64,000 nt of DNA from a virus (IMGVR_UViG_2579779105_000001); one strand, 5' to 3'; counted from the stretch's first letter, positions 10,640-63,920 are shown. Numbers and translations are program-made. The notes: generated by a model from the letters alone, not told the origin.

Positions 10640-10693
10640 CCTGTGTGCCTACAAAACATCCCAATGATCGGCAAATGCTCGCTCGATGATTTG

Positions 10694-11594: not shown

Positions 11595-11602
11595 AGCGTG
11601 AT

Positions 11603-11628: not shown

Positions 11629-12112
11629 ATGCCTCATTAGTTGAGGTTGCTGCGTCTCCGACTGGTAACAGAGCGGTATTGCGTGGTTCGCCAGCAGGCC
11701 AGCGATAGCCAGACACTCTTGATGTTGGGAATGCGCGAATATTAACCGCATCCCCCTGGTTCCCACCCAGGACAAGCAGATCGCCATTGGCGCGGCGTCC
11801 GACAACGAAGCCTACGTGCCCACCGCCTACGCGGGTAAATACAACGATACATCCGTATGCCGGTGTATCTAATTTCTCGCCCCAATCCAGATAGGATTTT
11901 GCCGACTCAAATCTTGTTGAGCGGATGCCTACACGTTCCAGCATTGCACCGACAAATGCTGCGCACCACGGCGTTTCATCGTCTTTAATTCCGCCGCGCT
12001 TGATGTCGCGCCAAAACTGAACGATTTCAGGGTTGTGTTTAGCGCCTTTTATTTCAGTCAGGCCAATGTGCTTACGTGCTTCAATTAGCCAGCGAGGTTC
12101 AATGTTTGCCAT
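11627..12112 (-). CDS. TIGR02594-family putative peptidoglycan hydrolase (NlpC/P60-CHAP-like)
   Basis: 161 aa; conserved core WCAAFVGAML...GGHVGFVVG typical of the phage-associated TIGR02594 family (recalled). Confidence 0.55.
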   Translation of the reverse strand: MANIEPRWLIEARKHIGLTEIKGAKHNPEIVQFWRDIKRGGIKDDETPWCAAFVGAMLERVGIRSTRFESAKSYLDWGEKLDTPAYGCIVVFTRVGGGHVGFVVGRRANGDLLVLGGNQGDAVNIRAFPTSRVSGYRWPAGEPRNTALLPVGDAATSTNEA

Positions 12113-12186
12113 ATTTTTTTCCGGTCATGGGTTAATAAGTAGGCAAACTATGGGGGGTATGTGATTTTGACGGTAGTATCGTCCCC

Positions 12187-15100
12187 GTGAAAATAACATT
12201 CTCCATACCCTCTCAACCGTACCGCATAGCGGATTTTTTACGGTTTAGAGGGGGTAATCCTTTGGATAAACTACTTCATTCAATCAGTGAAGCTTCCAGC
12301 TTAGGCGAACTGATTGAAATTGTTAGTCGGTTGCATAAATTACGTGCTGTTGCGACCTTTGGCGTTAAGAAAGTCGATGGTGTCAGCATTCAAAAAACAC
12401 GGCGGGCAGCAAACAACGCCGCAGTAGAGCTTCTTAATTCCCTTCCGCCCGGCTTCGATGGGGCGAAATTAACTGACGAACAGCGTCAGATTCTTGCCGG
12501 GTATACCGGTGAAGGCGGCCTGACAGATGGTGAGGGCAGCCAATACGAATACTACACGCCACAGTTTATGGCTGAAGGTATATGGGATCTGTTTGCTGAC
12601 TACGGTATTGATGGCGGGCACGTACTGGAACCATCAGCGGGCACAGGTATTTTCCAGGAGACAAAACGACAGGGCATGATAATGACCAGCGCCGAACTGT
12701 CTCCGATTTCCGGTCGAATAAACCAGCTTTTGCACCCGGAAGACGATGTGAATATCGGGGCGTTTGAGGCGCTGGCGGCGAAAGACGCAATGTATGATCA
12801 CGCTGTTGGTAACGTACCGTTTGGTGAAGGGCGTTCCGGTGTCGCCGGGCTTGATCCGGCATATGCAAACGAGAAGAACGTTGGCAATTACTTTGTGCTG
12901 CGCACGATCGACAAGGTTAAGCCTGGTGGGCTTATCGTATTGGTGGTGCCGAATGGCATGACCGATGGTACGAAATATAAAAAATTGCGCGATAAAGTCA
13001 GCCGTAAAGCGGAATTTTTGGGCGCACATCGTATGCCTTCCGGTACGTTCAGCGAATCCGGTACAGATACCGTGGTGGACGTATGGGTATTGCGTAAACA
13101 CCCGGAAACCTTCCTGGAGATGATCCCCGACACGGATGATTCAACACTCAAATCGGCAAACGTCCTTTGGGATACCTTCCTCAAAGGAAAATGGTTTACA
13201 ACCGAAGGGAAGCGATTTGTTTACGGCGACATGGAACGTACCAGCTTCCGCAATACCCTGGTGGTGAAAAAGGACGGTCGTGTATCCAATGAGTCGATGA
13301 AAACCGCGCTATCTCGTCGCTTTGATAGTCGCATCAATTGGGATTTGCTCGGCGTAACTACTCAGGCATGGCAGGGCGCGAAAGTGGGCGATAAACGCCT
13401 AGTAGGCGGCATCTGGCATGAGTTTGATGGCCTGAAATGGGTCAAGGACACGACAACCAAATCCTCCGCGCTTGATGTAAGTCGATATGGTGTTTCGACA
13501 TTCGGTGATCTGCAAACAACGTTCCAATCAACAAACGGCATTCTGGCTCTGTCATGGGGGCAGATATCCGCGATCGCTTCCGACTATCCATCGGTTATCA
13601 GTGATGAAGTAGCGGCAATGATTCGCTTTGCTGGGAAACAACGCGAAAAAGACCGTGAGCGCATTATGCGCGGTGCGCTGATCGGGCAACTTATCAATAA
13701 AGCGCTGGATAAGCGTAACCTTGGTGAAAACGTCGATGATGAACTGGCTGATGCCGCACGTCTGACGGCTGCCGAAGTTGCTAAATATGGCCCACCACAC
13801 GCCATTAAGCTAAACGACATTACCGAAGCGGGCGCGAAGAACTGGCTGACATTCACCGGGAACGTCAATCAGGACGGTGAAGCATCCGATCTGCTGTCCG
13901 GACGGCTTGATGTTAGCAAAGGGGCTGCTGGTATTGATTTCACTCGTCCGGAACAGGTTGTGACACACCTTTTCAGCGATGTTGCCCTTAATCCTATCAA
14001 TCTTGATGACTTCCGCGAGGCGTTTAAAGGCGAACTGCCAGAAGACGACGATCAAGCACTGGAATACCTGGCGAAATTCGACGATATCGCTATTGATGGA
14101 TATGGTTGCCTGCTACCGATGGGCCGTGCCACTAGCGGTGATATTAAATCAAAAGTGGCACTGCTGGTGGGCTGGCGAGACGCGTCCACAGGAGAGCGGA
14201 AGGCCAACTTTGAGCGCCAGCTTTCAAAAATCGAAGAGAAACGCACGTTTACACCGCTGAACAAAGTCACGGTAAACCTTAACGCACGGTGGTTGGATCG
14301 CCGCCTGATAAAAGAGTTCCTGGCAGAGCAGGGCTATGACGAGTTTAAGTATACAGAACCCGACCTTAAGGTTGAGAACGGCATTCTGGTATCCCCGGAC
14401 GATTACGAAGGTAAGGACGGGGTATTTACTGGCTACCAGCTACGAACCGTAAACGGCAAAAACGGGAACGAGTTCAAGAAAGCGAATAACAAAGATGGCT
14501 TCCTGAATCAGCTTGAGAACTACCTGAACGGTGTTAAACCGCGCGGACAGAACGCTAACGAGTACCTGGACAAAATCGCCCAGCTTGAGACGAGTTTTAA
14601 CGACTGGTTAAGAACTCACCCGCAGGCAGACCAGATCGCCCGCGATTATAACGACGCCTTTAACGGTTATATTCCATTTACCCATTCAGACGCACCCCTG
14701 GGGCTTGAAGGCATCAGCGGGAAACGTATACCGCTTTCTTACCAGAACGAAGAAGTTCGTCGTCTGTCGGAAGATGGGCGCGGGATTATGGGATTCGGAA
14801 CTGGTTTGGGTAAAACGACGACCGCGCTGGCACTGGAAGCCTATAACTTTGAAACCGGGCGAACCAAACGTACCTGTATCGTTGTTCCAAAGGCCGTATA
14901 CCAGAACTGGTATCACGAGGCACAGAGCTTCTACAGTGCAGATGCCTTCGCCAATATGATGTTTATCGGTCTGGACGAAGTGCGCGATGGTGACGGAAAT
15001 ATTCAGACTGCCCCAGTGCTCGACCAGGACGGCACCCCGCGACTTGATAACGACGGCAATCCGATCACCCGTAATGTTGTTAAAGAATCCGCCAGTGCCG

Positions 15101-17778
15101 TTATCGCTCAACGCATGAACATGATCCCATCGTCGAACTGGCGAACGGTCATCATGACAAAAGAGCAGTTCGCATCTATCCCGTTGCGCGATGAAACCAT
15201 CGGAGAAAACTCACAGCAGGCTGTCTTTAATGCCGCCGAAATGGGGCGTCTTGACCTGGCGTCAGGCAAGCACCGTGATGCGCAGAAGAAGAACAAGATT
15301 AAGGACCAGGCCGCGAATACCGGTACAGCGAAGAAGCAGAATATCCCGTACTTTGAGGATATGAACTTCGATAGCGTAATTGCCGACGAAGGGCACAACT
15401 ACCGCAACTCCTTTGGTGCCGGGCGTGAAGCGGGGCAACTGGCATATTTACCTAATCCGGCGGTATCCAAAATGGCCCGTGACATGGCTGTAAAAGCTGC
15501 GTACATGATGAAACGTCACAATGGGCGCGGCGTCGTAATGCTGACAGCAACTCCGCTGGTTAATAGCCCTATTGACGCCTTCAACATGCTGTCAACGGTG
15601 ATCCCTCAGCACGAGTGGATGCACATGGGGATTATTACCCCTGACGACTTTGTCCGAGTGTTCGGTAAAACAGCCACTGTTCAGGTCCAGAAAATTTCTG
15701 GCGAAGTGGAAGAGAAACAGGGGCTGGTGGGCTTCCAGAACCTTGATGGTCTGCGTGGCATTTTCCACCGCTGGACAACGCTTAAAACGGCTTCCGATGT
15801 TGGTGCAACGGTAAAAATCCCGGATATCGTCGAAAACACCTTGCAGATCCCAATGACTCCAGAGCAGCAAGCAGCTTATGAAGAGCTTCGTAAACGCGCG
15901 CAGGAGTTAAGTCGTGGTGATGACGTCACTGTCGATGATGAAGGCAATATCACTCGCGGGAAACCGGATGATTTCATTTTCTCTATCATTCGCGACATGG
16001 ATAAGGTCGCTATCGACCCGGATCTTTACGCCAGCGCTATCACATTCCAGTTCCCTGTAGAACTTACTGAACAGGTGAAGTCTATAGCTAATAACCTACC
16101 AAAAGTGGCTGGTGGGAAAGCGGCAGACGATGCAGAAGAAGCAGAGGAGGATGCGACCGGAGGCCTGGTCAGTACCCGTACCAGCAAGGTTGTAGCTACA
16201 ACATTTAGTGAGCATCCAAATCACGTCGAATTGCGTGCCAGCATTGACCTGGAGGCTGAAATACTCAAGGCAATTGCTGATGCAGGCATCGACATGAAAC
16301 AGGTGTCACACCCGATCCCGCCTAAGTATGCCGCACTTATCGAGAACCTTCGTGAAGGGCTTAAGAACGGTAAGCAAATTATCTTTATCGACGAGAAAGC
16401 CCAGCACCAGAAACTACGTCGCATCATTGCCAGTGCGTTGCAAATGCCAGAGCAGGAGATAGGCATTATCAATGCTACGACTGTTAGCCAGGCTGGTGGT
16501 GTTAAGCTGAAAAAGGTCAAAAAACCGACCGAACCGACGCCAAACAAAGACGGTGAATACAAAGAAGGCGCATGGGAAACCTACTACAGTAAACTGGCCC
16601 AATATGAGGATTATCTCTCTGCTAAAAATGATGCTGGCCTTGAGGGGATGGAAGGTATTGCTGCCGACTATAACGAAGGGCGCACGCAAATCATTATCTG
16701 TAACAAGAAAGCCGAAGTAGGTATCAACCTGCATATTGGAACGACCGATATTCACCACCTGACACTACCCTGGACTCCTGCCAGTATCGACCAACGAAAT
16801 GGGCGCGGTGCGCGCGTAGGTTCTCCGCAAGAGAAGGTTAATGTTCACTATTATTGTGGCAAAGGCACATTCGATGACTTCCGTCTGGATACGCTTAAAC
16901 GTAAGAAAGACTGGATCAAGATGGTGATGACCTCCGATATGTCAGAGATCGCCAATGGTGATGCGGATGACGCTGATGAACGCGCCATTATGCTGGCGGC
17001 AAATCCGGAAGAACGACGCGCAATTATGGCTCGTCAGTCGAAAGAACGTGAGGAACGCCTGCGACTTAAAGCGCAACGCGAAGCCAATAATGCTCTCGAT
17101 AACTACCTGAAAGCGGCGAATGCTGCCGGGAAGGATATCGGCATGATGGAGGCAGAACTGAAAAGCGCGATGGAGCAGGCGCAACGATACCAGAGTGATC
17201 TGGATGGACTGATTAAGAGCGGCATCAACAAAAACGGACAGAAATATACGCTTTCAGCACTAAGCAAAGCTAAAAAAAGAGTGCGTGAATTGCGATTTGC
17301 AATCACCAGGGCGAAGGACGCGGATACTGTTATGAAACGCTCTCGTGGTGATGTGGAGCGTGCTATTAAGTCTGGTGTGCTGGATATCAGTATCGATGTT
17401 ATTCAGAACCCGCAGGAGTATATGCGCACTGGCAAGAACATCCTGTTGCATAAAGGTAGTTACTACCGTGCAGTCATTGATGCTGAATACGAGACAACGG
17501 CGATTGTACGCGTGACACAAATTGAGGGCGAAAAAGCGCAATACACCTGCCGCGTCGCCTGGCTGGATAGAGCAAGTCGCAACTCTCGTTCTCCTGGCTC
17601 AACCATGACATTACCGTTTGACTCAGTGGTTGAAGCGGTAACATTTGAAGAGGGGGTGGCTGAATCACGAGAAATAGCGGCACGTGGTGTTCAAAGCCAC
17701 CAGCTTTCAACCTCTCTTTCTCGCGATCAATTCTATGACGCTATTCGTAGCGGTGTTATGCGGGTAACCGCACGCTGA
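12187..17778 (+). CDS. darB: DarB-like large polyvalent protein: N6-adenine methyltransferase + SF2 helicase
   Basis: 1863 aa; MTase motifs EPSAGTG and NVPFG; helicase Walker A GFGTGLGKTT and DEGH box; start (GTG 12187) uncertain. Confidence 0.7.
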   Translation: MKITFSIPSQPYRIADFLRFRGGNPLDKLLHSISEASSLGELIEIVSRLHKLRAVATFGVKKVDGVSIQKTRRAANNAAVELLNSLPPGFDGAKLTDEQRQILAGYTGEGGLTDGEGSQYEYYTPQFMAEGIWDLFADYGIDGGHVLEPSAGTGIFQETKRQGMIMTSAELSPISGRINQLLHPEDDVNIGAFEALAAKDAMYDHAVGNVPFGEGRSGVAGLDPAYANEKNVGNYFVLRTIDKVKPGGLIVLVVPNGMTDGTKYKKLRDKVSRKAEFLGAHRMPSGTFSESGTDTVVDVWVLRKHPETFLEMIPDTDDSTLKSANVLWDTFLKGKWFTTEGKRFVYGDMERTSFRNTLVVKKDGRVSNESMKTALSRRFDSRINWDLLGVTTQAWQGAKVGDKRLVGGIWHEFDGLKWVKDTTTKSSALDVSRYGVSTFGDLQTTFQSTNGILALSWGQISAIASDYPSVISDEVAAMIRFAGKQREKDRERIMRGALIGQLINKALDKRNLGENVDDELADAARLTAAEVAKYGPPHAIKLNDITEAGAKNWLTFTGNVNQDGEASDLLSGRLDVSKGAAGIDFTRPEQVVTHLFSDVALNPINLDDFREAFKGELPEDDDQALEYLAKFDDIAIDGYGCLLPMGRATSGDIKSKVALLVGWRDASTGERKANFERQLSKIEEKRTFTPLNKVTVNLNARWLDRRLIKEFLAEQGYDEFKYTEPDLKVENGILVSPDDYEGKDGVFTGYQLRTVNGKNGNEFKKANNKDGFLNQLENYLNGVKPRGQNANEYLDKIAQLETSFNDWLRTHPQADQIARDYNDAFNGYIPFTHSDAPLGLEGISGKRIPLSYQNEEVRRLSEDGRGIMGFGTGLGKTTTALALEAYNFETGRTKRTCIVVPKAVYQNWYHEAQSFYSADAFANMMFIGLDEVRDGDGNIQTAPVLDQDGTPRLDNDGNPITRNVVKESASAVIAQRMNMIPSSNWRTVIMTKEQFASIPLRDETIGENSQQAVFNAAEMGRLDLASGKHRDAQKKNKIKDQAANTGTAKKQNIPYFEDMNFDSVIADEGHNYRNSFGAGREAGQLAYLPNPAVSKMARDMAVKAAYMMKRHNGRGVVMLTATPLVNSPIDAFNMLSTVIPQHEWMHMGIITPDDFVRVFGKTATVQVQKISGEVEEKQGLVGFQNLDGLRGIFHRWTTLKTASDVGATVKIPDIVENTLQIPMTPEQQAAYEELRKRAQELSRGDDVTVDDEGNITRGKPDDFIFSIIRDMDKVAIDPDLYASAITFQFPVELTEQVKSIANNLPKVAGGKAADDAEEAEEDATGGLVSTRTSKVVATTFSEHPNHVELRASIDLEAEILKAIADAGIDMKQVSHPIPPKYAALIENLREGLKNGKQIIFIDEKAQHQKLRRIIASALQMPEQEIGIINATTVSQAGGVKLKKVKKPTEPTPNKDGEYKEGAWETYYSKLAQYEDYLSAKNDAGLEGMEGIAADYNEGRTQIIICNKKAEVGINLHIGTTDIHHLTLPWTPASIDQRNGRGARVGSPQEKVNVHYYCGKGTFDDFRLDTLKRKKDWIKMVMTSDMSEIANGDADDADERAIMLAANPEERRAIMARQSKEREERLRLKAQREANNALDNYLKAANAAGKDIGMMEAELKSAMEQAQRYQSDLDGLIKSGINKNGQKYTLSALSKAKKRVRELRFAITRAKDADTVMKRSRGDVERAIKSGVLDISIDVIQNPQEYMRTGKNILLHKGSYYRAVIDAEYETTAIVRVTQIEGEKAQYTCRVAWLDRASRNSRSPGSTMTLPFDSVVEAVTFEEGVAESREIAARGVQSHQLSTSLSRDQFYDAIRSGVMRVTAR

Positions 17779-17870
17779 AAAGAGAGCGCCGGGAACTAAA
17801 AGAGCGTTTAACCAGGCTCAATCAGCAATGCATTGATTATCAAGGCGAAGGCGTCACACTGCGTAAAAAG

Positions 17871-18503
17871 TTGGCTACAGCGCAGAGCATTATCGAAACA
17901 TTAAAGCGAGAGTGCTCACAGCTTGGTCACGATCTGAACCGTGCTTGTGGCATGGGACAAAGACCAGAGACATTTCCACTTATGTATGATGGGCGGGATG
18001 CCATTGCCTACATCCATGAGTATCCGCACGGCCTGGTTGCGGAAACTGGGCAGCGTGGCGAAGCACTGCTGACGGCTAATTACCATCAACAAATCAGAAC
18101 CAATCGCCTGTTAACGATGGATGTGATCCCATCGGTGTGGGGAACGCCGCTTTACTATCGCCTGCCGGGCTTCGAAAAGGACTGGAATACCGACATAGAC
18201 GAATGTCTCGCAGATAAAATTATGGCGTACCTGGAGACGGATTTTCCGCGCTTATATCGCCGGATTATGGACTCTAAGGATGCGCCAATCGATGAATTAA
18301 AAATGCGTCCGGAGACGCTGGAGGCAATCAAGCAGACGGAGTTTGATACTGTATTCAGTGTGGCCTGCATTCCAAGCTGTTTCCATGAAAGCATTCCGTT
18401 CATGCAAGGAGATCGTCGTCAGGAAATCATTGACGCTTGCCGGGTATGGGCGAACGAATGGGATAAGAAGAATGGGGGTGTAGAAGATCTTTACGGGAAA
18501 TAA
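17871..18503 (+). CDS. hypothetical protein
   Basis: 210 aa; track start is TTG; frame stays open upstream to 17751 across the darB stop; an in-frame ATG exists at 17952. Confidence 0.4.
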   Translation: MATAQSIIETLKRECSQLGHDLNRACGMGQRPETFPLMYDGRDAIAYIHEYPHGLVAETGQRGEALLTANYHQQIRTNRLLTMDVIPSVWGTPLYYRLPGFEKDWNTDIDECLADKIMAYLETDFPRLYRRIMDSKDAPIDELKMRPETLEAIKQTEFDTVFSVACIPSCFHESIPFMQGDRRQEIIDACRVWANEWDKKNGGVEDLYGK

Positions 18504-18505
18504 TG

Positions 18506-18516
18506 TGTTAGAAATC
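18506..18516 (-). promoter_or_regulatory. operator-like motif (reverse complement AGATTTCTAACAC)
   Basis: Variant of the recurrent motif, directly downstream of the 17871..18503 ORF. Confidence 0.35.
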
Positions 18517-19156
18517 TAAAATTACGATTCGAATGTATTGATTGTGAAGGTAACTTAACATAGAATTTTCCTTGCTGGTGGGCGGCACCCACGTTTCGCT
18601 TGCTGGGCTTGATAGTCACTTATTGGTTATTGTTCGCCCACCAGCATTTAACAAATTAAAGCGTTAGAAAAGTATAGTAACGCAAGAGCACGCTTTGGCA
18701 CCGTGCAGGCCAAAGTTCAGCAGGTTTAGTGCGGAAAGTGGTTTCAGAGAGAGCACTTTGCGGAGTAAACGACAGTACATGTTGAGCCACGGAAGGTCTT
18801 TTTAAGGTGTTCATTGATGATGGTCCGGCAGAGAGTAACGGTACATGCTGCATCTAATCATCAATGCACATCTTCAACATTAAGGAGGCATAGGGATTTT
18901 TGTGGCGGTTACCTTTTGCCCTGAGTCTCCTTAATGTTGCGGTAATGCACCTATGCGGATGTGGCCTTGCATTGTGTCTTGAAAGAATGGGGTAAGGCCG
19001 GGGACATCCCCAGGGGGAGGCACCCCCGCTGCAACGAACAGCCACAGACGGCAGTCGAGTGATGGGAACGTGCAAAGACTTTAAACCTCGTTATGGCTGG
19101 CGTGGCAAACGCGACAACCGAGACAGAGCGGTGACGGGCGGAGAGAGTGCCGCATC

Positions 19157-19278
19157 AAGAAAGAAGCCGACTTGTGATCCCTTTCAGCGGGCATTTGAAA
19201 GTGAATCCAGTTCAGGCAGTCGGCTTCTTTCTTGTGTGAGATGTAGCGTATTTGCCCATCTTCGGGTGGGCTTTTTTA
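19157..19278 (+). ncRNA. candidate small RNA: 16-bp inverted repeat stem-loop plus intrinsic terminator
   Basis: AAGAAAGAAGCCGACT (19157-19172) pairs with AGTCGGCTTCTTTCTT (19218-19233); then GCCCA-TCTTCGGG-TGGGC + TTTTTT at 19254-19278; no convincing ORF. Confidence 0.35.
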
Positions 19279-49344: not shown

Positions 49345-50530
49345 TTTCCTGAAAAAACAGGACGGGCGCTATATCACTGACGGCCTGTCCTCTAAGGACT
49401 TCACGCGTTTATTCGAGATTATCAGGAAAGAACAAACCCGTAAGCGCCGACAAGCTCACCGGACGCTGACGCCAGGTAGACTGAGGAACAAATCCGCCGA
49501 AGATATTCTCAAGTTAGGGAAGAAAAAAGGCGGCACGTTCTTCACGCGAGACGACCTGAAAGGTTTCGAAAAGCTACGGAGTAAAACGCGCGAAAAATAT
49601 GACAGCAAGACGGCTGGCATCACATACGCCCAGCTGGTGGCATCCAGCCAGGCAATCGATATTAAGCGTGCAAATAACGCCGTGGATGACGGATCTGGTA
49701 TCAAAAGAGCTACCCCCGTATCTCTTCGCCACAATGTGATTAATATCCGCGTAGAAGCATCGGATATATCCGTCCACCAGCACCATATCGTCCGGATACG
49801 CTTTGAAGAATGGGATCAGATGGTTGATGACATCGCAGAAGACGATAAATCAGCTCTCAAAATCACTAAATCACTGTGCGCCGGGCGAGTGTCTTTCGAT
49901 TGTGACTGTGGTCGTCATCAATACTGGTATCGTTACATCGCCACTGCGGGTAACTTTGCCCTGGCACCGCCAAAAGAATACGCCTATCCAAAAGTTCGCA
50001 ACCCGAACCTGCAAGGCGTCGCCTGTAAACACGTGATCCACTCAATGACGCGGTTACAGTCCGCCAGTTGGCAAATGAGTATTGCTCGTGCGCTACAAAA
50101 GGCTGCAACGCAAATTGCATTTGGTGACGATCGCCGCCGTACAACCAAACACTTCTCAAAAGAAGACGAGAAGGAGTTTAATCGCAATCGTAGCAGTAAA
50201 ACGAACGTTGAAGCCGCCAAACGCGAATGGAGACTCTATCAGAAGCGCCAGGCAGCTTTAAGTTCAAAACTGGCAAAGGACAACGGCAAGATCGACAAGC
50301 TACGTGACCAATTGACCAGGGCCAGAAAGTTGTCAGACGCACAGAAAAAACGGGCGGCTGCAAAAGAAGCGGCCTTGCAACGAGAGAAGCAGAAAAACAA
50401 GGAGCTTCAGCAACGCCTTGCCGATCAGTTCGCACTGAAGAAGCAGGCGTTCATTGATGCGCTTGTCATGGCAGGAACGTCACCTGAGCAAGCTGAAAAA
50501 ATGTTTATAGAGTACGTGAAAAAAGCATAA
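49337..50530 (+). CDS. SWIM zinc-finger protein with basic coiled-coil C-terminus
   Basis: CDCGRHQYWY ... CKH fits the SWIM CxCxnCxH pattern; Lys/Arg/Gln-rich C-terminal 130 aa. Confidence 0.45.
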   Translation: MPDFLKKQDGRYITDGLSSKDFTRLFEIIRKEQTRKRRQAHRTLTPGRLRNKSAEDILKLGKKKGGTFFTRDDLKGFEKLRSKTREKYDSKTAGITYAQLVASSQAIDIKRANNAVDDGSGIKRATPVSLRHNVINIRVEASDISVHQHHIVRIRFEEWDQMVDDIAEDDKSALKITKSLCAGRVSFDCDCGRHQYWYRYIATAGNFALAPPKEYAYPKVRNPNLQGVACKHVIHSMTRLQSASWQMSIARALQKAATQIAFGDDRRRTTKHFSKEDEKEFNRNRSSKTNVEAAKREWRLYQKRQAALSSKLAKDNGKIDKLRDQLTRARKLSDAQKKRAAAKEAALQREKQKNKELQQRLADQFALKKQAFIDALVMAGTSPEQAEKMFIEYVKKA

Positions 50531-50563
50531 ACCACACATAGCCTAGTAGTTTATGCTGGGCTT

Positions 50564-51292
50564 TCATTTTTTTGAAAGATCAATTCCAGTATTATCAAAT
50601 AAACTGGAAATATCAGACACCAATTTATTAAAATGCTTGTCATCATTATAGAATGATGTGCTTTTTATAGCGACTATAAAATCACATAAATCTTGCGGAG
50701 ATTCAATGCTAACACCCTTATTTTTATATAGTTCAATAATACTGCCAACATCAGTATGCAATAGTTTTATCGCACCACAAATTTCTCGCTGTTTCGTAGC
50801 TAGGTCATTAAGTTTATTTTCATTTTCATCTAATATTTGTTTTGAATATTTAGCGTCATTGGTTGCTTGATTTAACTTTGTTTTCTTTCTTTGCAATTCT
50901 ATTCTTTTATCATAATCAGCAACTTCATCTAAATATCTTATTTCAGTGTATAATTTACTTGTTAGCTTAGATATCGTCAGTGTGAGAATAGGAGCTAATA
51001 CAGATGCAAATACTCCATAAATAAATGGGATTACAACGTGACAAACCCACGGGGGTACAATCCAATTATCAAAGAACGGTACATTACCACCAACAAAAAC
51101 AATAGATAATGTATATAGGATGTCGTCCTTTGACTTTAATATAATTAAAATATCCTTCCAGTTAAGGATTAGAAAAGAAATGACAACATATGCAAAAACC
51201 TTGTTAAATATTTTATCTTTTATTATTTCAGAAAATGATTTTAGTTCTGTTTCATTTATAGACGGATTATCTTTAACTTTTTCTGACATCAT
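50564..51292 (-). CDS. membrane protein with cytoplasmic coiled coil, in an AT-rich island
   Basis: 242 aa; AGGA SD; several hydrophobic helices; visibly lower GC than its flanks. Confidence 0.5.
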   Translation of the reverse strand: MMSEKVKDNPSINETELKSFSEIIKDKIFNKVFAYVVISFLILNWKDILIILKSKDDILYTLSIVFVGGNVPFFDNWIVPPWVCHVVIPFIYGVFASVLAPILTLTISKLTSKLYTEIRYLDEVADYDKRIELQRKKTKLNQATNDAKYSKQILDENENKLNDLATKQREICGAIKLLHTDVGSIIELYKNKGVSIESPQDLCDFIVAIKSTSFYNDDKHFNKLVSDISSLFDNTGIDLSKK

Positions 51293-51313
51293 AGCTTATC
51301 CTGATTACTTTTA

Positions 51314-51514
51314 TTATGGATAGTTAAAAGATTCAACAGGTGATGGTGGCTGAATTGGGTAATGTTTCTTCTCGTACTCCTCAATGAGAAGACTCATAAC
51401 CTCAAAGAAATCACCTTCCGGAGTATTCATTTCCGGTTCGTTATCGAACATCGGTTCGACCGCACGCAGTGCGGCCTCATAATCTTGTTCTGTACGGATA
51501 GGTTTAATGTTCAT
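51314..51514 (-). CDS. small antitoxin-like helical protein
   Basis: 66 aa; PIRTEQDYEAAL ... TPEGDFFEVMSLLIEEYEKKHYPI resembles the N-terminal helical module of some antitoxin/XRE proteins; weak SD. Confidence 0.3.
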   Translation of the reverse strand: MNIKPIRTEQDYEAALRAVEPMFDNEPEMNTPEGDFFEVMSLLIEEYEKKHYPIQPPSPVESFNYP

Positions 51515-51527
51515 TAATTACAAAGGA

Positions 51528-51553
51528 AAGCCCACTTGCTAAGTGGGCTTTTT
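51528..51553. terminator. hairpin AAAGCCCACTT-GCTA-AGTGGGCTTT
   Basis: Immediately downstream of higA; strong T-run on the + strand, weaker T-rich tract on the minus strand. Confidence 0.4.
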
Positions 51554-51570
51554 GTATGTGTTTTACTATA

Positions 51571-51909
51571 TCAGGCTGCTTTTTTATTCATGTTCCGCTG
51601 AGAAATAAATTTTTCAGCAGTATTGATACGACTTAACTCTTCCTGAACGCGCATATCATTTTCGACTTCCCACAGATCTACTGCGGTCTGAAGATTAATC
51701 CAAAAATCTACAGAAGTATCGAATGCTTTTGCCAGGCGATATGCCATATCCATCGTTAGCTTACGATTATTATTAACAAGAGCACTTACGGTGTTACGAT
51801 GAACATGAAGTATTTCTGCTAACTCGTTGATCTTCAGCTCTAACGGCTCCAGGTATTCGTACAGCAGGATATCACCTACGGTCGTCGGTTTTCTGGTTGC
51901 CTGTTTCAT
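51571..51909 (-). CDS. higA: HigA antitoxin (XRE-family HTH)
   Basis: HTH segment ELAEILHVHRNTVSALVNNNRKLTMDMAYRLAKAF; located downstream of higB. Confidence 0.8.
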   Translation of the reverse strand: MKQATRKPTTVGDILLYEYLEPLELKINELAEILHVHRNTVSALVNNNRKLTMDMAYRLAKAFDTSVDFWINLQTAVDLWEVENDMRVQEELSRINTAEKFISQRNMNKKAA

Positions 51910-51980
51910 TTTTTTGCCCTTACTAGCGTGCGTATTAAGTGGACTCTGGTCAGAACCCGGTCCGTAACCGGGTATCTGTT

Positions 51981-52283
51981 TTAGTATTTGTGAGGGTCGA
52001 GATACAAGTCCTCGGCCTTTCCGTTAACCCACTTAAAAATTAACCTATATTGCTTATTCACCCTTACTGATGAATAGCCATTTAGCTTCCCTGACAGTTC
52101 CTCATACCGATTACCTGGTGGTGATCTTAAATCCTTACAGGTAGTTGCGGCATTGATAATGTCCAACTTCCGTGACAATGTCATATGAATATCAGGAGGT
52201 ATCTTTCTATGTGGTGTTGAAAATTCAAAAAAATCATCAAGCCACGCATCCCTGAAATCCTTTATGTTAATTTTTTTGGTCAT
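51981..52283 (-). CDS. higB: HigB toxin (RelE/ParE superfamily)
   Basis: 100 aa; C-terminal YRLIFKWVNGKAEDLYLDPHKY signature of HigB killer proteins. Confidence 0.8.
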   Translation of the reverse strand: MTKKINIKDFRDAWLDDFFEFSTPHRKIPPDIHMTLSRKLDIINAATTCKDLRSPPGNRYEELSGKLNGYSSVRVNKQYRLIFKWVNGKAEDLYLDPHKY

Positions 52284-55694: not shown

Positions 55695-56600
55695 ATGAGA
55701 TCAGTCGCTTTCAAAAATATCTTCATCTATCGTCTTTCACGCGAAGTTAACTGGGATACCGCAGAAGTAAATGCAGCCCTTAGCAAGTTTGTGTTTACCC
55801 CATGCGGTTCTCAGGATATGGCTAAAGCTGGTTGGACCCCAATTCTTGGCGACAACCTCACCCATGAATACCAGGGTTTTCTTCTGATGCAGCATAAACG
55901 AGAGGAAAAAATCCTGCCTTCTCAAGTACTCAAAGAAGAGTTACAGAAAAAAATCCTGAAACTTGAAGAAGAGCAAGACAGAAAGCTGAAGAAGACCGAA
56001 AAAGATTCGCTGAAGGATGAAGTGCTTCACTCTCTTCTTCCTCGCGCTTTCACGAGAAAATCAGTCGCTAAAATCCTGATAGACCGAAGCAATCATCTGG
56101 TTTTTGTCGAGGCCAGCAGTGCTAAAAAAGCAGAGGATCAGCTGGCTTTGTTACGGAAATCGCTTGGCAGCTTGCCCGTTGTCCCCTTCTCTCCGAAAGA
56201 CCCATTAGAACTGACCATCACTGGCTGGATTAAAGATGGCTTCCCGAACGGTTTCCGTGCTGGTGAGGAAGCGACTTTAAAAGCATTGCTTGATGATGGC
56301 GGCGCGGTCCGCTGCAAAAAAGTGGACCTGCTATCCGACGAGATCATGAGTCATATAGAAGCTGGTAAGGTTGCAACCACAGTTGCGGTTAACTGGCAAG
56401 ACCGTGCATTTTTCAGACTGAATGACGATATGAGTATCAAGGCTTTGTCGTTCAGCGACGAATTGTACGACCAAAACGACGATATTGATCGAGAGGATGT
56501 AGCGCAACGATTTGACGCTGACTTTATCCTGTTTACTGCTGAATTATCAGCCATGTTCACTTCGCTAGTGGAGGCCGTTGGTGGTGAAGCAGAACGTTAA
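55695..56600 (+). CDS. hrdC: RdgC-like recombination-associated protein (P1 HrdC-like)
   Basis: N-terminus [10 protein letters not shown] ... [14 protein letters not shown] matches RdgC as recalled. Confidence 0.75.
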
Positions 56601-58872
56601 CCTTAGATATGGTTCTGTTTGCAGTGGAATTGAAGCAGCGAGCATTGCCTGGGAACCGTTGGGTATGCGTCCGGCGTGGTTTGCTGAAATCGAGCCTTTT
56701 CCATCTGCCGTTCTTGCGCACCGCTGGCCCCATGTCGCCAACCTTGGCGATATGACAAAACTTGCCAAAAAAGTCCTGGCTGGGGAAATCGAATCCCCTG
56801 ATGTGCTCGTCGGGGGAACACCTTGTCAGGCATTCAGTATCGCGGGATTACGTGGTGGGCTTGATGATGAGCGTGGCGCGCTAACTTTAAAGTATGTGGA
56901 GCTTGCAAATGCAATTGACGACAAACGGGCTGAGTCATTTCTCAAACCAGCCGTTATCGTCTGGGAAAATGTCCCAGGAGTCTTGTCATCGGCAGATAAC
57001 GCCTTCGGATGTTTCCTTGCCGGATTGGCTGGAGAAGATGCGCCATTCGAACCAGGTGCTCGACCTGAATCACGAAAAAGTAACGCGTTCTGGCGGTGGG
57101 ATGTCAAAACCAGTTGCCATGCTCCAAAGTGGCCGCAGTGTGGTTGTATTTATGGACCGCAGCGAAAAGTGGCCTGGAGAATCCTTGATGCCCAATACTT
57201 CGGAGTGGCACAACGACGCCGACGCGTGTTTGTTGTCGCAAGTGCTCGAACAGACCTCGATCCCGCAACGATACTTTTTGAGTTCGAAGGCGTGCGCCGG
57301 AATATTGCGCCGAGCCGAAAAAAGAAGGAAATCGCTTCCGCCATTATTGCAAATGGCGCTGCAATCAGTGGCGAAAGTCTAAATCCATGCCTACACGCTG
57401 ACATGCCCCCCGGTATGAAATCGACGAAAGCCGTAAACGCTTTCAGGATGGCGGCATTTGGGGAATATATTGACGATGAAACCGCATCGACAGTAAAGGC
57501 AAGAGACTTTAAAGATGCCACTGACCTTGCCGTTTTTAGCAGCACAGGAGCAGGTTTTTGGTCAGAGGGGCATGGTACATTGCGGGCGCGTGAGCAAGAA
57601 AGCCATGAGCATCTTGTTACATTAGCTTTTCCTGAGCATATGAGCGGTACACAACATGCTGCAACTAAGAATACTTCACCATCTCTAATGGCTCAAAATC
57701 CAACAGCCGTTTGCTATGAAGCAAGAAACGCAAAAGTAGCTGTTCGCCGTCTTACCCCTGTCGAATGTGAAAGGCTGCAAGGTTTTCCTGATGGGCATAC
57801 GTTGATCCCTACGGAAAAGCGTAAAACAATTTCCTCAGATGAACTGGCATACCTTCGCAATCACTATCCAGATTTAAGCGAAGAAGAGGCCGCGATGCTC
57901 GCTGCTGACGGGCCGCGTTACAAAGCGATTGGCAACAGCATGGCAGTTCCTGTTATGCAATGGATTGGGTGTTGCATTCTTGCGACTGTGGAAGCTAAAC
58001 AGCCAAAAACAATAAATACCATTACCTACACAAGAATACTCCGGACTCCGGATGAATATGAGCGTCCGATCTTCAAATGGGTAGGAGGTAAATTCTCAGA
58101 GTTACCTACAGTGCTTGAGCATCTACCACACGGCAAGCGGTTAATAGAACCATTCGTTGGTGGCGGTTCCGTATTTACGAATGCAGGATTTCGCCACAAC
58201 CTGCTTAATGATATTAACGGTGACCTGATTAACTTCTATCAGACATTGCAGCGAGAAGGACATTCGCTCGTCACGCTGTCATATAGTTTTTTCCAAAATT
58301 ACAACAACGCTGACGCTTACCTCGAAGTGCGTGAGGCATTTAACAGAGGAAAGTATGACCAGCTACATCATGCTGCCGCCTTTTTGTACCTTAATCGGCA
58401 CTGTTTTAATGGCGTAACGCGGTACAACCAAAATGGCGAGTTCAACGTGGGGTATGGCAAATACAAAGCGCCCTACTTCCCACATGCAGAGATGGAGGCA
58501 TTTTTGGCTGATGACGTACTCAAAAACACGTCCTTTGTATCAGGTGACTTTGCTGGCGTCATCGAGGCGGCTGGTGAAGGCGATGTGATTTTTTGCGATC
58601 CGCCGTATGAACCGCTGCCGGATACAGAAGGGTTTACCAGTTATTCAGGAAATAGCTTCCGTTTCGACGAACAGAAACGGCTGGTATCTCTATTGGTGGA
58701 AGCCCACCAGCGCGGCGCTAAGGTAGTGATTACAAATAGTGGTGCGCCAAACATCCGTGAACTATATGAAGGAAACGGGTTTAAAGTACATCATATGGCA
58801 GCCAGACGGTCGGTTTCCTGCAAGGCGTCAACACGTGTAGTTGCTAACGATATAATTGCAATAATGAAGTAA
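56578..58872 (+). CDS. dmt: bifunctional DNA methyltransferase: N-terminal C5-cytosine MTase + C-terminal Dam-like N6-adenine MTase
   Basis: C5 motifs [26 protein letters not shown]; Dam-like motifs KWVGGK and DPPY; start codon (TTG/GTG at 56578-56584) uncertain. Confidence 0.8.
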
Positions 58873-58874
58873 AA

Positions 58875-58904
58875 AACGCCGCAGTAGCGGCGTTTACTTT
58901 TTTA
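58875..58904. terminator. bidirectional rho-independent terminator
   Basis: AACGCCGC-AGTA-GCGGCGTT hairpin with A-run upstream and T-run downstream, between convergent dmt and glnS. Confidence 0.65.
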
Positions 58905-58920
58905 TGTGGCGAAATACCTA

Positions 58921-60582
58921 TTAACCTAACTTCGCCCAGGTATCACGCAGCCCAACGGTGCGGTTAAATACCGGTTTTTCCGCCGTAGAATGGCGGCTGT
59001 CGAGGCAGAAATAACCTTCACGCTCAAACTGGAATGCTTTACCAGCTACCGCTTCTTTCAGCGACGGTTCAGCAAAGCCCTGTTTGATCACCAGCGATTC
59101 CGGGTTAATCACCGACAGAAAATCATCCGCAGCACCTGGGTTCGGTACACTGAACAGACGGTCGTACAGGCGAATTTCAACCGGCAGCGCATGGGCCGCG
59201 CTTACCCAGTGGATAACGCCTTTCACTTTACGACCATCTGCCGGATCTTTGCTTAAAGTATCGGCATCGTAGGTACAGAAGATGGTGGTGATATTGCCTT
59301 CGGCATCTTTCTCCACGCGTTCAGCCTTAATGACGTAAGCATTACGCAGACGCACTTCTTTACCCAGCACCAGACGTTTGTACTGCTTGTTAGCTTCTTC
59401 GCGGAAATCGGCGCGGTCGATCCAAATCTCACCGCTAAACGGCACCTGACGGCTACCCATTTCCGGTTTGTTCGGATGGTTCGGCATGGTGACCATTTCG
59501 CCTTCGCCCTGGTAGTTTTCGATAACCAGTTTCACCGGATCGATAACCGCCATTGCGCGCGGCGCATTTTCGTTGAGATCTTCACGGATGCAGGATTCCA
59601 GCGACGCCATCTCAATGGTGTTGTCCTGCTTGGTCACGCCGATGCGTTTGCAGAACTCACGAATAGAAGCCGCAGTGTAACCACGACGACGCAGACCGGA
59701 AATGGTCGGCATACGCGGGTCATCCCAGCCTTCAACGTGCTTGTCGGTCACCAGCAGGTTCAGCTTACGCTTGGACATCACAGTGTATTCCAGATTCAGG
59801 CGCGAGAATTCGTACTGGCGCGGGTGAACAGGAATGGTGATGTTGTCCAGCACCCAGTCGTACAGGCGACGGTTGTCCTGGAACTCAAGCGTACACAGAG
59901 AGTGCGTAATACCTTCCAGCGCATCGCTGATGCAGTGGGTGAAGTCGTACATCGGGTAGATGCACCACTTGTTGCCAGTCTGGTGGTGTTCAGCAAACTT
60001 AATGCGGTACAGCACCGGATCGCGCATCACGATAAACGGCGACGCCATGTCGATTTTCGCACGCAGGCAGGCTTTACCTTCTTCAAAACCACCGGCACGC
60101 ATTTTTTCGAACAGCGCCAGGTTCTCTTCAACGCTGCGATCGCGGTACGGGCTGTTTTTACCCGGCTGCGTCAGGGTGCCGCGGTATTCGCGGATCTGTT
60201 CCGGCGTCAGTTCGTCAACATACGCCAGGCCTTTGTTGATCAGTTCAACAGCATAGGCGTGGAGCTGATCAAAATAATCGGAGGAGTAACGGACGTTACC
60301 AGACCAGTGAAAACCTAACCATTCAACGTCGTTTTTAATCGACTCGACGTACTCGATATCTTCTTTTACCGGGTTAGTGTCGTCGAAACGCAGGTTGCAC
60401 TGGCCTTTATAGTCCTGGGCGATCCCGAAGTTCAGGCAGATAGATTTCGCATGACCAATATGCAGATAGCCATTCGGTTCCGGCGGGAAACGGGTATGTA
60501 CTGTGGTGTGCTTACCACTTGCCAGATCTTCATCGATGATCTGACGAATAAAGTTAGTCGGGCGGGCTTCTGCCTCACTCAT
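58921..60582 (-). CDS. glnS: glutaminyl-tRNA synthetase
   Basis: 553 aa, essentially collinear and near-identical to E. coli GlnS as recalled, including HIGH (HIGH at residues 40-43) and VMSKR. Confidence 0.9.
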
Positions 60583-60850
60583 TGTGGATTCCTCAAAGCG
60601 TAAAAAACGTATAACAGCGTATGATCTTATAAGCCGAATAGGCTGACAACCACTAGTTGATTAGAAATTGCTTTCTATCGTTATTTCAATAATGAGCTTT
60701 TTCATGAAGCCCACTTTTGCGCATAAGTAAATTAATGACAAATGGTACACAATTGGAACCAAAAAGGATGTAAAGGTGCACCAAATTAGTGGTGTATTGG
60801 TGCATCTTTGGTTCAAGATTTTTTAAGTTCTAAAACCACCCTGAAAGACT

Positions 60851-61138
60851 TTATTTTGCTTCCTCAGACTCCGCTAACATGAGGATAGCATGGCGGATCA
60901 TATTCAATTTGCTGCGATTATGCTTTTTACTTAACGCATCAAGTACCTGGTACTCGTATTCATTGAAACCAACACGAATAGATTTAAAATCACGTGGAGC
61001 GTCCTTATCGAGCACTTTGTTGTCTTCTGGTTGCTCACCCGGCACCAAATCAGCCTTACTTGCAAAATCCTCAATTCGGCGTTCAAGATCGGGGTCTTTT
61101 ACTTCGGGGGCTTTTACCGATTTACGAGGTTTAATCAC
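60851..61138 (-). CDS. ParG-like ribbon-helix-helix partition protein
   Basis: 95 aa; C-terminal RHH-like KSIRVGFNEYEYQVLDALSKKH; overlaps the ParA-like gene. Confidence 0.5.
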   Translation of the reverse strand: MIKPRKSVKAPEVKDPDLERRIEDFASKADLVPGEQPEDNKVLDKDAPRDFKSIRVGFNEYEYQVLDALSKKHNRSKLNMIRHAILMLAESEEAK

Positions 61139-61772
61139 TTAATAACTCCTTAACCAACATCTGGATTTCACCTTTAGCTTTCCCGTTGTCCATCTCAACA
61201 ACGCCCTTCCCTTCAGCCATGCAATCGCGGTAAACCTTACGATCACGAATGATGGTTTTCAGCAACTTCAGTTGCGGATATTCAGCCAGGTACTCTTTGG
61301 CCTCATTGGTTTCATTCACAACCGGATTGGATGGGGCCATTGTTAAGACTGCGAACGCCTTAATGCTAGGATTAGGCATCAGGTCCAAAGCCTCTTCAAA
61401 CACTTCAACAAAGTGTGCCAGCGTGTCTAAATCTGGTTGAGATGGTCTGAATGGGACCAACACAATATCTGCAGCGGTTATGCCTGTACGCATCTCTTTG
61501 CTATCGCGCCCGGCTGTATCAACAACTACAAATTCATAACGCTTATCCAGATCGAGAAGTGTTTCTCGAATATTACCAAACTTCTGGACACAATGAATTA
61601 CAGGAGAAACCTCTGCCGTGTTACGGTCAGCGGCCCAGCGGGCAGCTGTTCCTTGCTTGTCTGCATCTAGTAACACTACATCCTTATTTTCGCGGGCAAG
61701 CTCCGCACAGATGTTTACGCTTGTGGTTGATTTTCCACAGCCACCTTTTTGGCTGACTACCAATATAATCAT
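61131..61772 (-). CDS. parA: ParA/ParF-family partition ATPase (type Ib)
   Basis: 213 aa; deviant Walker A KGGCGKST. Confidence 0.8.
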   Translation of the reverse strand: MIILVVSQKGGCGKSTTSVNICAELARENKDVVLLDADKQGTAARWAADRNTAEVSPVIHCVQKFGNIRETLLDLDKRYEFVVVDTAGRDSKEMRTGITAADIVLVPFRPSQPDLDTLAHFVEVFEEALDLMPNPSIKAFAVLTMAPSNPVVNETNEAKEYLAEYPQLKLLKTIIRDRKVYRDCMAEGKGVVEMDNGKAKGEIQMLVKELLSD

Positions 61773-61794
61773 ATCCGTTCCTCGGTGTTATTTT

Positions 61795-62050
61795 GGTATC
61801 AAACTGGTTCCAAACAGAAGCCTTATTGATGCAGTTTTGGCTCTATAGTGGAGTCATTATGCTTTGCAAAAGTATAACACTAATCATTCTAAATTTGCCC
61901 TCTGTTGCATCCTGTTTAACACGAAATCAGCCCTAAATTGGAACCAGATACAAAACTGCACCATAACAGCACCTAACCGGTGCCAGATTAACACCAATTA
62001 GGCACCATTAAGGCATAAAAAAGGCTGCAATTTGCAGCCTTAAACCAGCA
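61795..62050. repeat. centromere-like repeat region (GCACCA / TGGAACCA / TGGTTCCA motifs)
   Basis: Several short direct and inverted repeats upstream of the parA-like gene; similar motifs at 60760-60820. Confidence 0.35.
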
Positions 62051-62059
62051 CATCTTCTG

Positions 62060-62404
62060 TCAATCAGGTAGAGAGTCAGCCAGATTGCGCGCCGACGCGC
62101 TTTTGGCAACAACTTGCTCCTTCACTGGCTCAATGGAGGCAGGGCGCTCCTCAACCGCAGCTGGTAGTTCCAGGAAGGATGCCAGCATTTTTCGGATCAG
62201 CTCCGGATTATTATCTTCGGTCAGCAGGGAAGCCAGTAATCCTGGAAGCCTGCTATCGACTTCTCCCAGCGCAAGCCCTGCCAACAATGCGGTTCTTGCC
62301 ATATCGCTATGTTTTTTTATCTTCTCGCTCGCCGCCTTTTCATTGGCATAAGCCTCTGGGCGAAGATAAATCATCACTTTCTTACGTTCCTGAGACATGG
62401 ACAT
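62060..62404 (-). CDS. parR: ParR/StbB-like partition adaptor
   Basis: 114 aa directly downstream of the actin-like ATPase gene. Confidence 0.5.
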   Translation of the reverse strand: MSMSQERKKVMIYLRPEAYANEKAASEKIKKHSDMARTALLAGLALGEVDSRLPGLLASLLTEDNNPELIRKMLASFLELPAAVEERPASIEPVKEQVVAKSASARNLADSLPD

Positions 62405-62411
62405 TACCTCG

Positions 62412-63368
62412 TTAACCGATTGCTTTCAGGCCATGAACAAGAGCAAGTTGCGGGTCATCCGCCACGAAGAAACGGTCATCACGAATATTAACTTGCTCGC
62501 GAATTGCATCTGCCACCAGCGGTGCGCCACCACCGATCACCATGACATGCGTATATCCTTTAAAGTCGCCAATCACATCAAGAACGCGGGTACGCAGACG
62601 GTCAATGCTTGCGGCAATGGCCTTTTTCACATCACCAATCGCTGATGGGTCATTGATATTGTCGTTCAGATAATCTTCATCGTGGCGGTTAATAATGAGC
62701 TGATCGACATTGTAATTTGACGTTTCGGTATTGGCCCTTGCAAGTGCTTGCCTTACTTCCCTGGTGACCAGTGATACACCAAGATTCGAATCGCCAAAAA
62801 CACGGGAAACTGCCGTCATTTGCCCGGCGACCATTGAAACATCAAGGGTAGTTCCACCCAAATCGACGATAAGAACAGAATGGGCAGGGTTCAGATTGTC
62901 GCACAGGCCAATTCCTGCCGGAATAGACTCCGGTCGTACCGTAACTTTCTTAATCGTGAACACATTGCCTTTATTCAGCGTGACGGGGCGCATAAGACTG
63001 GCTTTCTTGCGCTCGATGTTATCGAGATTGTATTGCGCGTCGTCGTCGTAAAACTCCGCCAGAGGCAGCGTGACCACAATTTCTACTTCCTGCGGCTCAA
63101 TGCCACTTGTCAGCAGGGCATGGTGAACAGCCAGGACGTTAAGCGGGCTGTATTGCCATTCCACGTTATTCGTCGGCAGAACATCTGGCGAGATCAAATC
63201 ATACGAATACTTTTCGTCGTCAATGACATAGTTAAACGGCTTGCCCGCACCAAATGTTGCTGACCATCCGCGCTTAAAGCTGTTAGGGCTGATGTGAGTG
63301 CGAGTTTCCCCGTCGTGCTCCCACAGCATTTTGATATTGGTTGAACCATCATCGATAAAAATGCGCAT
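62412..63368 (-). CDS. parM: ParM/StbA actin-like segregation ATPase (type II)
   Basis: N-terminus MRIFIDDGSTNIK matches ParM/StbA as recalled; start placed at ATG 63368 (GGAG SD), not the track start. Confidence 0.8.
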   Translation of the reverse strand: MRIFIDDGSTNIKMLWEHDGETRTHISPNSFKRGWSATFGAGKPFNYVIDDEKYSYDLISPDVLPTNNVEWQYSPLNVLAVHHALLTSGIEPQEVEIVVTLPLAEFYDDDAQYNLDNIERKKASLMRPVTLNKGNVFTIKKVTVRPESIPAGIGLCDNLNPAHSVLIVDLGGTTLDVSMVAGQMTAVSRVFGDSNLGVSLVTREVRQALARANTETSNYNVDQLIINRHDEDYLNDNINDPSAIGDVKKAIAASIDRLRTRVLDVIGDFKGYTHVMVIGGGAPLVADAIREQVNIRDDRFFVADDPQLALVHGLKAIG

Positions 63369-63393
63369 CTTCTTGCTCCACTTCTGAGACACA

Positions 63394-63635: not shown

Positions 63636-63920
63636 ATGAGCGCAATAGCCACCAGCGACACCCTTTGTTCTGGTCACGGAGGATTTCCGCCGCGACTGGT
63701 AGCTGAAACTGTTCCCTGGTTCACCGTTAACGGTAAGCCAATTGTTGTAGATGGTGCCATGTTTCCCAGTCACACTGACGGTAACAGTGCACATCCAGGG
63801 GCAGCTGTATCGACGCGAGTATGGTTTTCGATAGGTGGAAAGGGAGTTGTCTGTGTAGGCGATCCGCTTTCTTGTGGTTCTGTTATCGCCAACGGCGAGG
63901 ATATTTTTCAGGTTGCATAA
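63636..63920 (+). CDS. PAAR-like spike-tip protein
   Basis: 94 aa, Gly/Pro-rich with conserved Cys/His pattern reminiscent of PAAR-like domains; GGAGG SD. Confidence 0.4.
   Translation: MSAIATSDTLCSGHGGFPPRLVAETVPWFTVNGKPIVVDGAMFPSHTDGNSAHPGAAVSTRVWFSIGGKGVVCVGDPLSCGSVIANGEDIFQVA

Follow-up and report, generated by a model that had tools for sequence, protein, structure and literature searches.

The 64,000-nucleotide (nt) viral DNA IMGVR_UViG_2579779105_000001 (the whole of which is referred to here as the window) carries a full-length gene for glutaminyl-tRNA synthetase (GlnRS), glnS, within the interval 58873-60850, which is exactly the intergenic block between the genes dmt and orf61. The glnS gene (58921..60582, minus strand) encodes an intact glutamine--tRNA ligase of 553 amino acids (aa). 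The open reading frame (ORF), Pfam, NCBIfam, and alignment with Escherichia coli structure chains agree on this assignment, bearing out the original prediction of a GlnS collinear with that of E. coli. Against the TIGR00440 glnS equivalog model, the product reaches 1067.6 bits over residues 28-551 (cutoff, 425.8 bits). It contains three Pfam domains placed end to end (the catalytic domain PF00749 and the beta-barrel anticodon-binding domains PF03950 and PF20974), and is collinear throughout with the E. coli GlnRS crystal-structure chains 1o0b, 1gtr, and 1qtq. The class I motifs are kept (HIGH at residues 41-44 and VMSKR at residues 268-272). Relative to the K-12 enzyme, the only differences are the substitutions I112V, D510E, and V552L and the missing final residue E554; V112 is also present in Citrobacter GlnRS. 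At the nucleotide level, the gene is 95.6-97% identical to E. coli chromosomal glnS. Because the protein is ∼99.3% identical to the characterized E. coli enzyme, we infer that the gene encodes an active GlnRS that glutaminylates tRNA-Gln.

On its downstream side, glnS converges on dmt (56578..58872, plus strand), a 764-aa fusion of a C5-cytosine and a Dam-type N6-adenine DNA methyltransferase (ORF, PF00145, and PF02086; "similar to P1 dmt" in the annotation of Escherichia phage D6). Only one hairpin, AAACGCCGC-AGTA-GCGGCGTTT at 58874-58895, separates the two genes. A two-strand terminator scan and folding identify this hairpin as a bidirectional intrinsic terminator (-17.1 and -17.4 kcal/mol in the two orientations, with z = -2.8 and -5.1, respectively) with T-runs on both strands, in agreement with the shared terminator originally proposed for this convergent pair. 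In alignment, E. coli 23AR1183, Salmonella, and Citrobacter have exactly this stem and T-run (AAACGCCGC...CTGCGGCGTTTTTT) in their glnS terminators. Since the hairpin is homologous to the chromosomal glnS terminator, it arrived with glnS and now also ends dmt. A short, nonconserved spacer lies between the glnS stop codon and the terminator, with chromosomal homology resuming in the hairpin; between the same two points, the E. coli chromosome has a repetitive extragenic palindromic (REP)-type insertion that the phage copy lacks.

The extent of the captured segment was delimited by alignment with E. coli chromosomes, Escherichia ruysiae, Salmonella, and Citrobacter. The glnS 5' untranslated region (60583..60620, minus strand; Shine-Dalgarno sequence GAGGA) differs from the E. 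coli chromosomal leader at three positions (T/C, T/G, and A/G). Ahead of it lies the native glnS sigma-70 promoter, TTGTCA-17 nt-GATCAT (60621..60649, minus strand), found by a promoter scan and predicted to be active; both hexamers are those of the E. coli chromosome, and three changes fall in the spacer between them. Homology to the chromosomal nagE-glnS intergenic region (CAATTT.TAA..AACTA...GTTGTCA; 60650..60680, minus strand) begins ∼30 bp upstream of the -35 hexamer. The junction sequence, TTTCTAATCAACTAGTGG, is common to all D6-like copies, including that of a divergent Escherichia fergusonii plasmid. In all, the intergenic region upstream of glnS spans 268 bp and comprises the promoter, a ∼65-bp spacer (60681..60744) conserved in D6-like elements, and a cluster of repeats, followed by orf61 and parA. 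No counterpart of the spacer was recognized in the E. coli chromosome or in relatives with an empty site. The original prediction had glnS running straight into repeat-bearing partition DNA, which is roughly correct except that the promoter and spacer intervene. The repeat search placed a cluster of short direct and inverted repeats at 60745..60835, just downstream of orf61 (motifs GGTGCACC, GGAACCAAA, and GTGTACC); from its sequence, this cluster is probably a centromere-like site of the ParA system.

Relatives without glnS show what the locus looks like when empty. In Escherichia marmotae pRHBSTW-00605_3, E. coli NZ_CP085065.1, and CP042620.1, another hairpin (GCCCC/GGGGC) stands behind dmt, and ∼110 bp of short repeats lead from there to orf61-parA. 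Kindred repeat motifs (TTTTGGTTCCA.TGTGT and GTGTACC) occur there at the same position, and orf61-parA is 95.7% (pRHBSTW-00605_3) and 96.8% (NZ_CP085065.1) identical to that of the window. As judged from the alignments and these empty sites, a whole chromosomal glnS transcription unit of ∼1.8 kb (promoter, leader, ORF, and terminator) was inserted in the D6 lineage at a point where dmt ends on one side and the centromere-like repeats lie on the other. It came from an Escherichia-type bacterium; in the contig scan for glnS relatives, E. ruysiae was the only non-coli Escherichia among the matches listed. The gene is also compositionally foreign to the element, as its G+C content at third codon positions (GC3) of 0.612 is the highest among the 43 large ORFs of the window (mean, 0.473; standard deviation, 0.060). 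The insert thus combines its own promoter and terminator (the activity of both being predicted), an empty site in relatives, and atypical composition, which are the marks of a moron, a self-contained cargo gene.

Sequence and gene order identify the window as a portion of a P1-family phage-plasmid of the D6-like kind. Its 2.6-kb interval 58600-61200, which includes both glnS junctions, is 97.8% identical at the nucleotide level to phage D6, and the window and the D6 annotation have in common the order tail/baseplate genes, hrdC, dmt, glnS, orf61, parA, stbB, parM, and upfC. At full length, the 2.6-kb stretch is shared by 98 PLSDB plasmids, whose hosts are E. coli, Salmonella, Shigella, and E. 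fergusonii. The circular plasmid NZ_CP095127.1 (94,223 bp) ranks first, with 99.9% identity, and the best matches are circular records of 87-97 kb; the circular plasmid state of ∼90 kb is known from such records of relatives. Among 5,426 complete E. coli genomes, 70 carry the dmt|glnS|orf61-parA junctions on plasmids, and the best 60 full-length E. coli matches all lie on plasmid records (74-216 kb), none being chromosomal. Annotations give an intact glnS for phage D6 as well as for the majority of the 98 PLSDB plasmids (E. coli, Salmonella, and Shigella). In an E. fergusonii plasmid with an overall match of only 88%, glnS is likewise intact and has the same upstream junction as the window. 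In addition, ∼20 viral contigs in IMG/VR encode a GlnRS protein that is 99-100% identical. As had been noted for the window, the chromosomal neighbors nagE and chiP are missing; the 18.6 kb annotated around glnS in phage D6 contains neither of them. Far from being a product of mis-assembly, the D6-type glnS is a genuine cargo gene that defines the lineage of D6-like phage-plasmids. Such elements turn up fairly often, in ∼1.3% of complete E. coli genomes as well as in Salmonella and Shigella, and a nearly unchanged essential housekeeping gene is rare cargo for temperate phages.

The presence of glnS in D6-like phage-plasmids is an already described feature. The gene is orf62 of D6, and Silva et al. 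(2019; PMC6799933), who cite Gilcrease and Casjens (2018) for D6, regard it as a moron present in every D6-like genome. Our literature search found no later functional study of D6-like glnS. Newly added here are the anatomy of the captured unit, the empty-site relatives, the GC3 and substitution-rate analyses, the intact chromosomal locus in carriers, and the mosaic structure of the alleles.

Hosts of D6-like elements retain their own gene in every case inspected. Three carriers of D6-like plasmids (23AR1183, EP91B, and O111:H11 88-19539) have an intact 554-aa chromosomal glnS between chiP and nagE together with the 553-aa plasmid copy and are therefore merodiploid for glnS. Across E. coli, the 5,425 genomes with any glnS match have about one chromosomal place each (5,427-5,428 places). 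The two to three places in excess of the number of genomes, with up to three places per genome, are a side observation; a few chromosomes may hold a second glnS, for example in an integrated D6-like element or a duplication, and none was seen among the best 60 full-length E. coli matches mentioned above. The element encodes its own tRNAs in a cluster at 19738-21982 (Asn-GTT, Thr-TGT, Ser-TGA, and Met-CAT), the same set (Asn, Thr, Ser, and Met) that is reported for the D6-like prophage pYU39_89. No tRNA-Gln is among the tRNAs encoded on the window, so the GlnRS must use host tRNA, and the suggestion that capture of a synthetase fits with the element's tRNAs is a weak one.

Comparison of alleles revealed how the captured gene has evolved. 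Plasmid and E. coli chromosomal glnS alleles differ at 44-71 of ∼1,660 sites, compared with 2-46 differences among plasmid alleles and 20-42 among E. coli chromosomal alleles; E. ruysiae glnS differs from both the chromosomal and the D6-like plasmid alleles at 74-90 sites. Ratios of nonsynonymous to synonymous substitution rates (dN/dS) all fall within 0.008-0.03, a purifying pattern that matches the one seen when chromosomal orthologues are compared with each other. The differences are unevenly placed: 13 of the 16 fixed between plasmids and chromosomes fall within nt 87-585, and the 3' part of the plasmid alleles consists of blocks that match different chromosomal alleles. Within the final 420 nt, 4 sites separate D6 from K-12 and 26 separate it from the window, compared with 28 between the window and K-12 (Fisher P = 1.5e-6); the 3' part of glnS in D6 and pYU39_89 is K-12/O157-like. 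A self-devised recombination test, based on the clustering of four-gamete incompatibilities in 16 alleles, gave a neighbor-site incompatibility of 0.196 versus 0.364 ± 0.012 in 2,000 site permutations. Because the plasmid copy is nearly identical to the host gene over 1.7 kb, the two can exchange sequence by homologous recombination.

The 5' haplotype of the window allele does not exceed 96.3% identity in sampled E. coli chromosomes, with only 27 records in all reaching at least 99%. Over the final 370 nt of this allele, identity to 5,256 of the 5,500 E. coli records that match is no more than 90-95%. An exact-pattern scan led to the metagenome contig OLIF01000036.1, in which a glnS at 6041-7705 has a chiP-glnS context. 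This gene is 4-5% diverged from the E. coli, E. ruysiae, and plasmid alleles and contains a 203-nt tract (nt 1261-1463 of the coding sequence) identical to that of the window; the contig either donated this tract or represents a chromosome into which a D6-like plasmid introduced it. We considered the divergent 3' third of the window gene as the ancestral D6 allele and set this idea aside, since the tract in OLIF01000036.1 would fit a later acquisition from a different Escherichia host just as well.

Taken together, these comparisons show the plasmid glnS alleles to be mosaics of several Escherichia glnS lineages. The simplest reading of the sequences is that glnS was captured once, as suggested by junctions that are shared even with the E. 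fergusonii plasmid of only 88% overall match, and was then repeatedly exchanged by homologous recombination with the chromosomal glnS of successive Escherichia hosts. A phage-plasmid and its host chromosomes therefore visibly trade segments of an essential gene, which could confuse multilocus sequence typing or core-gene typing and makes D6-like glnS a natural system for the study of plasmid-chromosome exchange.

Several other sequences were inspected along the way. On the E. fergusonii plasmid NZ_CP099330.1, positions 3306-4970 hold a 554-aa ORF ending in AKVEG with the same upstream glnS junction; this glnS is ∼5% diverged, and the flanking 3' end of dmt is ∼12-15% diverged. Two apparently divergent alleles, pSa1423 (89.6%) and CP043024 (93.1%, partial), were excluded as indel-riddled sequences typical of uncorrected long-read assemblies. 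Two IMG/VR loci encoding more distant proteins (85% and 75% aa identity; L105 and L109) were rejected as independent captures, as they represent a chromosomal fimbrial context and an integrase-adjacent context, neither of them D6-like.

The genes around the insert deserve brief description. The single dmt ORF of the window (C5-methylase plus Dam-type D12 domain) is annotated as two genes, orf64 and orf63, in D6, and many RefSeq records of D6-like plasmids mark its 3' part as an incomplete pseudogene; dmt is variably intact across the D6-like family. A Dam site (GATC) lies inside the glnS -10 hexamer. Dam methylation represses chromosomal glnS according to Plumbridge and Soll (1987), as summarized in PMC12369378, where the effect is confirmed by RNA sequencing. 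That the neighboring Dam-type dmt influences this site is speculation. On the other side of glnS, orf61 (95 aa; 60851..61138, minus strand; ORF and D6 annotation) overlaps the end of parA, has no family match in Pfam or NCBIfam, and is probably the partner of ParA. The parA gene (61131..61772, minus strand; ORF and Pfam) encodes a small ParA-type partition ATPase of 213 aa and is oriented like glnS. The terminator scan predicted no site between orf61 and glnS, so read-through from the parA operon into glnS may be possible. Two partition systems stand side by side at 60851-63392, one formed by ParA and orf61 and the other by an actin-type ParM with an StbB/ParR-like protein (PF10784). Just beyond parM, a small ORF at 63636-63920 corresponds to D6 orf57, whose annotation names a PAAR-motif protein with similarity to P1 upfC. 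Elsewhere in the window, 50001-52000 is low in G+C (0.38-0.40 versus ∼0.48 elsewhere) and is possibly another acquired module; one large ORF of the window has a GC3 of only 0.21.

We consider it likely, on the evidence of these sequences, that the captured glnS unit of this D6-like element, which recombines with the host copy, supplies a functional second GlnRS as a cargo gene. In the plasmid prophage, glnS would be transcribed from its own housekeeping promoter, possibly with a contribution from parA read-through, and the plasmid-encoded GlnRS would charge host tRNA-Gln. If the gene is expressed and its product active in this way, the lysogen would have a second, plasmid-linked source of an essential enzyme. 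The benefit, most likely an extra or backup supply of GlnRS or help to plasmid retention, is a matter of speculation.

A number of observations weigh against this proposal. The protein is so close to the host enzyme that no unique biochemical role is evident, the chromosomal gene is intact in all three carriers checked, and close relatives do well without glnS. The low dN/dS could in part have been imported by gene conversion from chromosomal alleles under selection instead of reflecting selection on the plasmid copy. Finally, a few full-length PLSDB plasmid matches have no glnS annotation, and the PLSDB gene table omits pseudogenes; among the unannotated matches that were inspected, pSa1423 and the partial CP043024 are the error-ridden assemblies described above, and NZ_CP031917.1 has an annotated glnS in RefSeq.

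A bolder version of the proposal, which we regard as doubtful, would make the plasmid gene the dominant source of GlnRS in lysogens, with retention of the element as for cysS of plasmid pBT1, and at the same time a preferred crossover point between phage-plasmid and chromosome. Its recombination component draws on the mosaic alleles and on the 203-nt tract shared with the divergent chromosomal contig. If true, it would imply a two-way exchange of alleles and possibly transient cointegrates that mobilize the nagE-glnS-chiP region.

Closely allied to this, and in our view unlikely, is the idea that take-over of an essential function serves plasmid maintenance, such that the plasmid glnS would be the main or only effective source of GlnRS and loss of the phage-plasmid would be costly. 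Silva et al. (PMC6799933) have proposed this for the D6-like glnS, and cysS of pBT1 in Salmonella D23580 provides a precedent (PMC6333337). The gene is indeed a full-length, plasmid-borne essential aminoacyl-tRNA synthetase, and two partition systems adjoin it in the plasmid-maintenance region. However, chromosomal glnS is intact in the carriers, and the counts over 5,426 genomes fit every carrier keeping it; the sequence reveals no means by which the chromosomal copy would be silenced, and D6-like elements already have toxin-antitoxin systems. The intact chromosomal sequence does not settle the question, since the chromosomal cysS sequence is also unchanged in D23580.

Alternatively, glnS could be a neutral hitchhiker, picked up in one illegitimate recombination event and kept intact only through gene conversion from the host copy. 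Such a history would account for a protein essentially identical to that of the host, for relatives that lack the gene, and for the demonstrated recombination with chromosomal alleles. We nonetheless find it improbable, as the gene and its junction have been kept across D6-like lineages as far apart as the E. fergusonii plasmid (88% overall), and as an E. coli-type allele is intact in Salmonella hosts, whose own glnS differs at ∼255 of 1,662 nt and would therefore be a poor conversion donor. The 5' third also retains a plasmid-specific haplotype, meaning that the gene has not simply been overwritten.

Plasmid-borne second synthetases are classically resistance determinants, such as mupA (IleRS) and agnB2 (LeuRS), and resistance alleles of synthetases are divergent. 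An inhibitor- or toxin-resistant enzyme of this type, protecting the lysogen or the phage, would be very hard to reconcile with a protein that departs from K-12 GlnRS by three conservative substitutions and the loss of a C-terminal residue, and neither a natural inhibitor of GlnRS nor a toxin directed at it is known to us. Least credible of all, though in keeping with the ∼96% nucleotide identity to E. coli chromosomal glnS and the chromosome-like GC3, is the other option raised in the original prediction, namely, that the gene belongs to the host chromosome and was joined to phage DNA by chimeric assembly or by integration of a prophage beside chromosomal glnS, with nagE and chiP just outside the window: the same junctions recur across independent sets of records (D6, 98 PLSDB plasmids, and 70 complete E. 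coli genomes, the best 60 matches all being plasmid borne), which excludes both an assembly chimera and a chromosomal integration junction and instead upholds capture by the element; chromosomal homology extends no farther than a point shortly upstream of the -35 hexamer on one side and the terminator on the other, and neither nagE nor chiP is present; and carriers have a separate chromosomal chiP-glnS-nagE locus.

Among known systems, the closest is D6 itself, in which orf62 (MF356679/NC_050154), annotated as "glutaminyl-tRNA synthetase, similar to E. coli GlnS," is the same gene at the same locus as in the window. The D6-like prophage pYU39_89 (PMC6799933) agrees in gene, locus, and neighbors (dmt on one side and orf61-parA-stbB-parM on the other). 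The D6 and window proteins are 99.3% identical, and the genes differ only as alleles do, the 3' third being divergent in the window and K-12-like in D6 and pYU39_89. Chromosomal glnS of E. coli (nagE-glnS-chiP) is homologous to the window gene in its promoter hexamers, leader, ORF, and terminator stem. By comparison, the window ORF is one codon shorter (AKLG* versus AKVGE*) and has neither the nagE and chiP flanks nor the REP element.

More instructive with respect to function is cysS on pBT1 of Salmonella Typhimurium D23580 (Canals et al. 2019; PMC6333337), likewise a full-length second class I aminoacyl-tRNA synthetase on a large, low-copy plasmid (∼85-94 kb) of an enterobacterium. That gene is needed for normal growth, the chromosomal cysS being downregulated with its sequence unchanged, as revealed by expression analysis and transposon sequencing. 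The pBT1 gene is 79% (nucleotide) and 89% (aa) identical to its chromosomal counterpart, compared with ∼96% and 99% for D6 glnS, and its take-over has been shown experimentally, whereas D6 glnS is known here from its sequence. At a greater distance, huge or jumbo phages also encode GlnRS, as in the uncultured LR745206 and LR756502 (∼640 kb; 50-54% aa identity). The huge-phage copies are old and divergent and lie amid large sets of translation genes, whereas the D6 copy is recent, nearly unchanged, and carried by a 90-kb temperate phage-plasmid.

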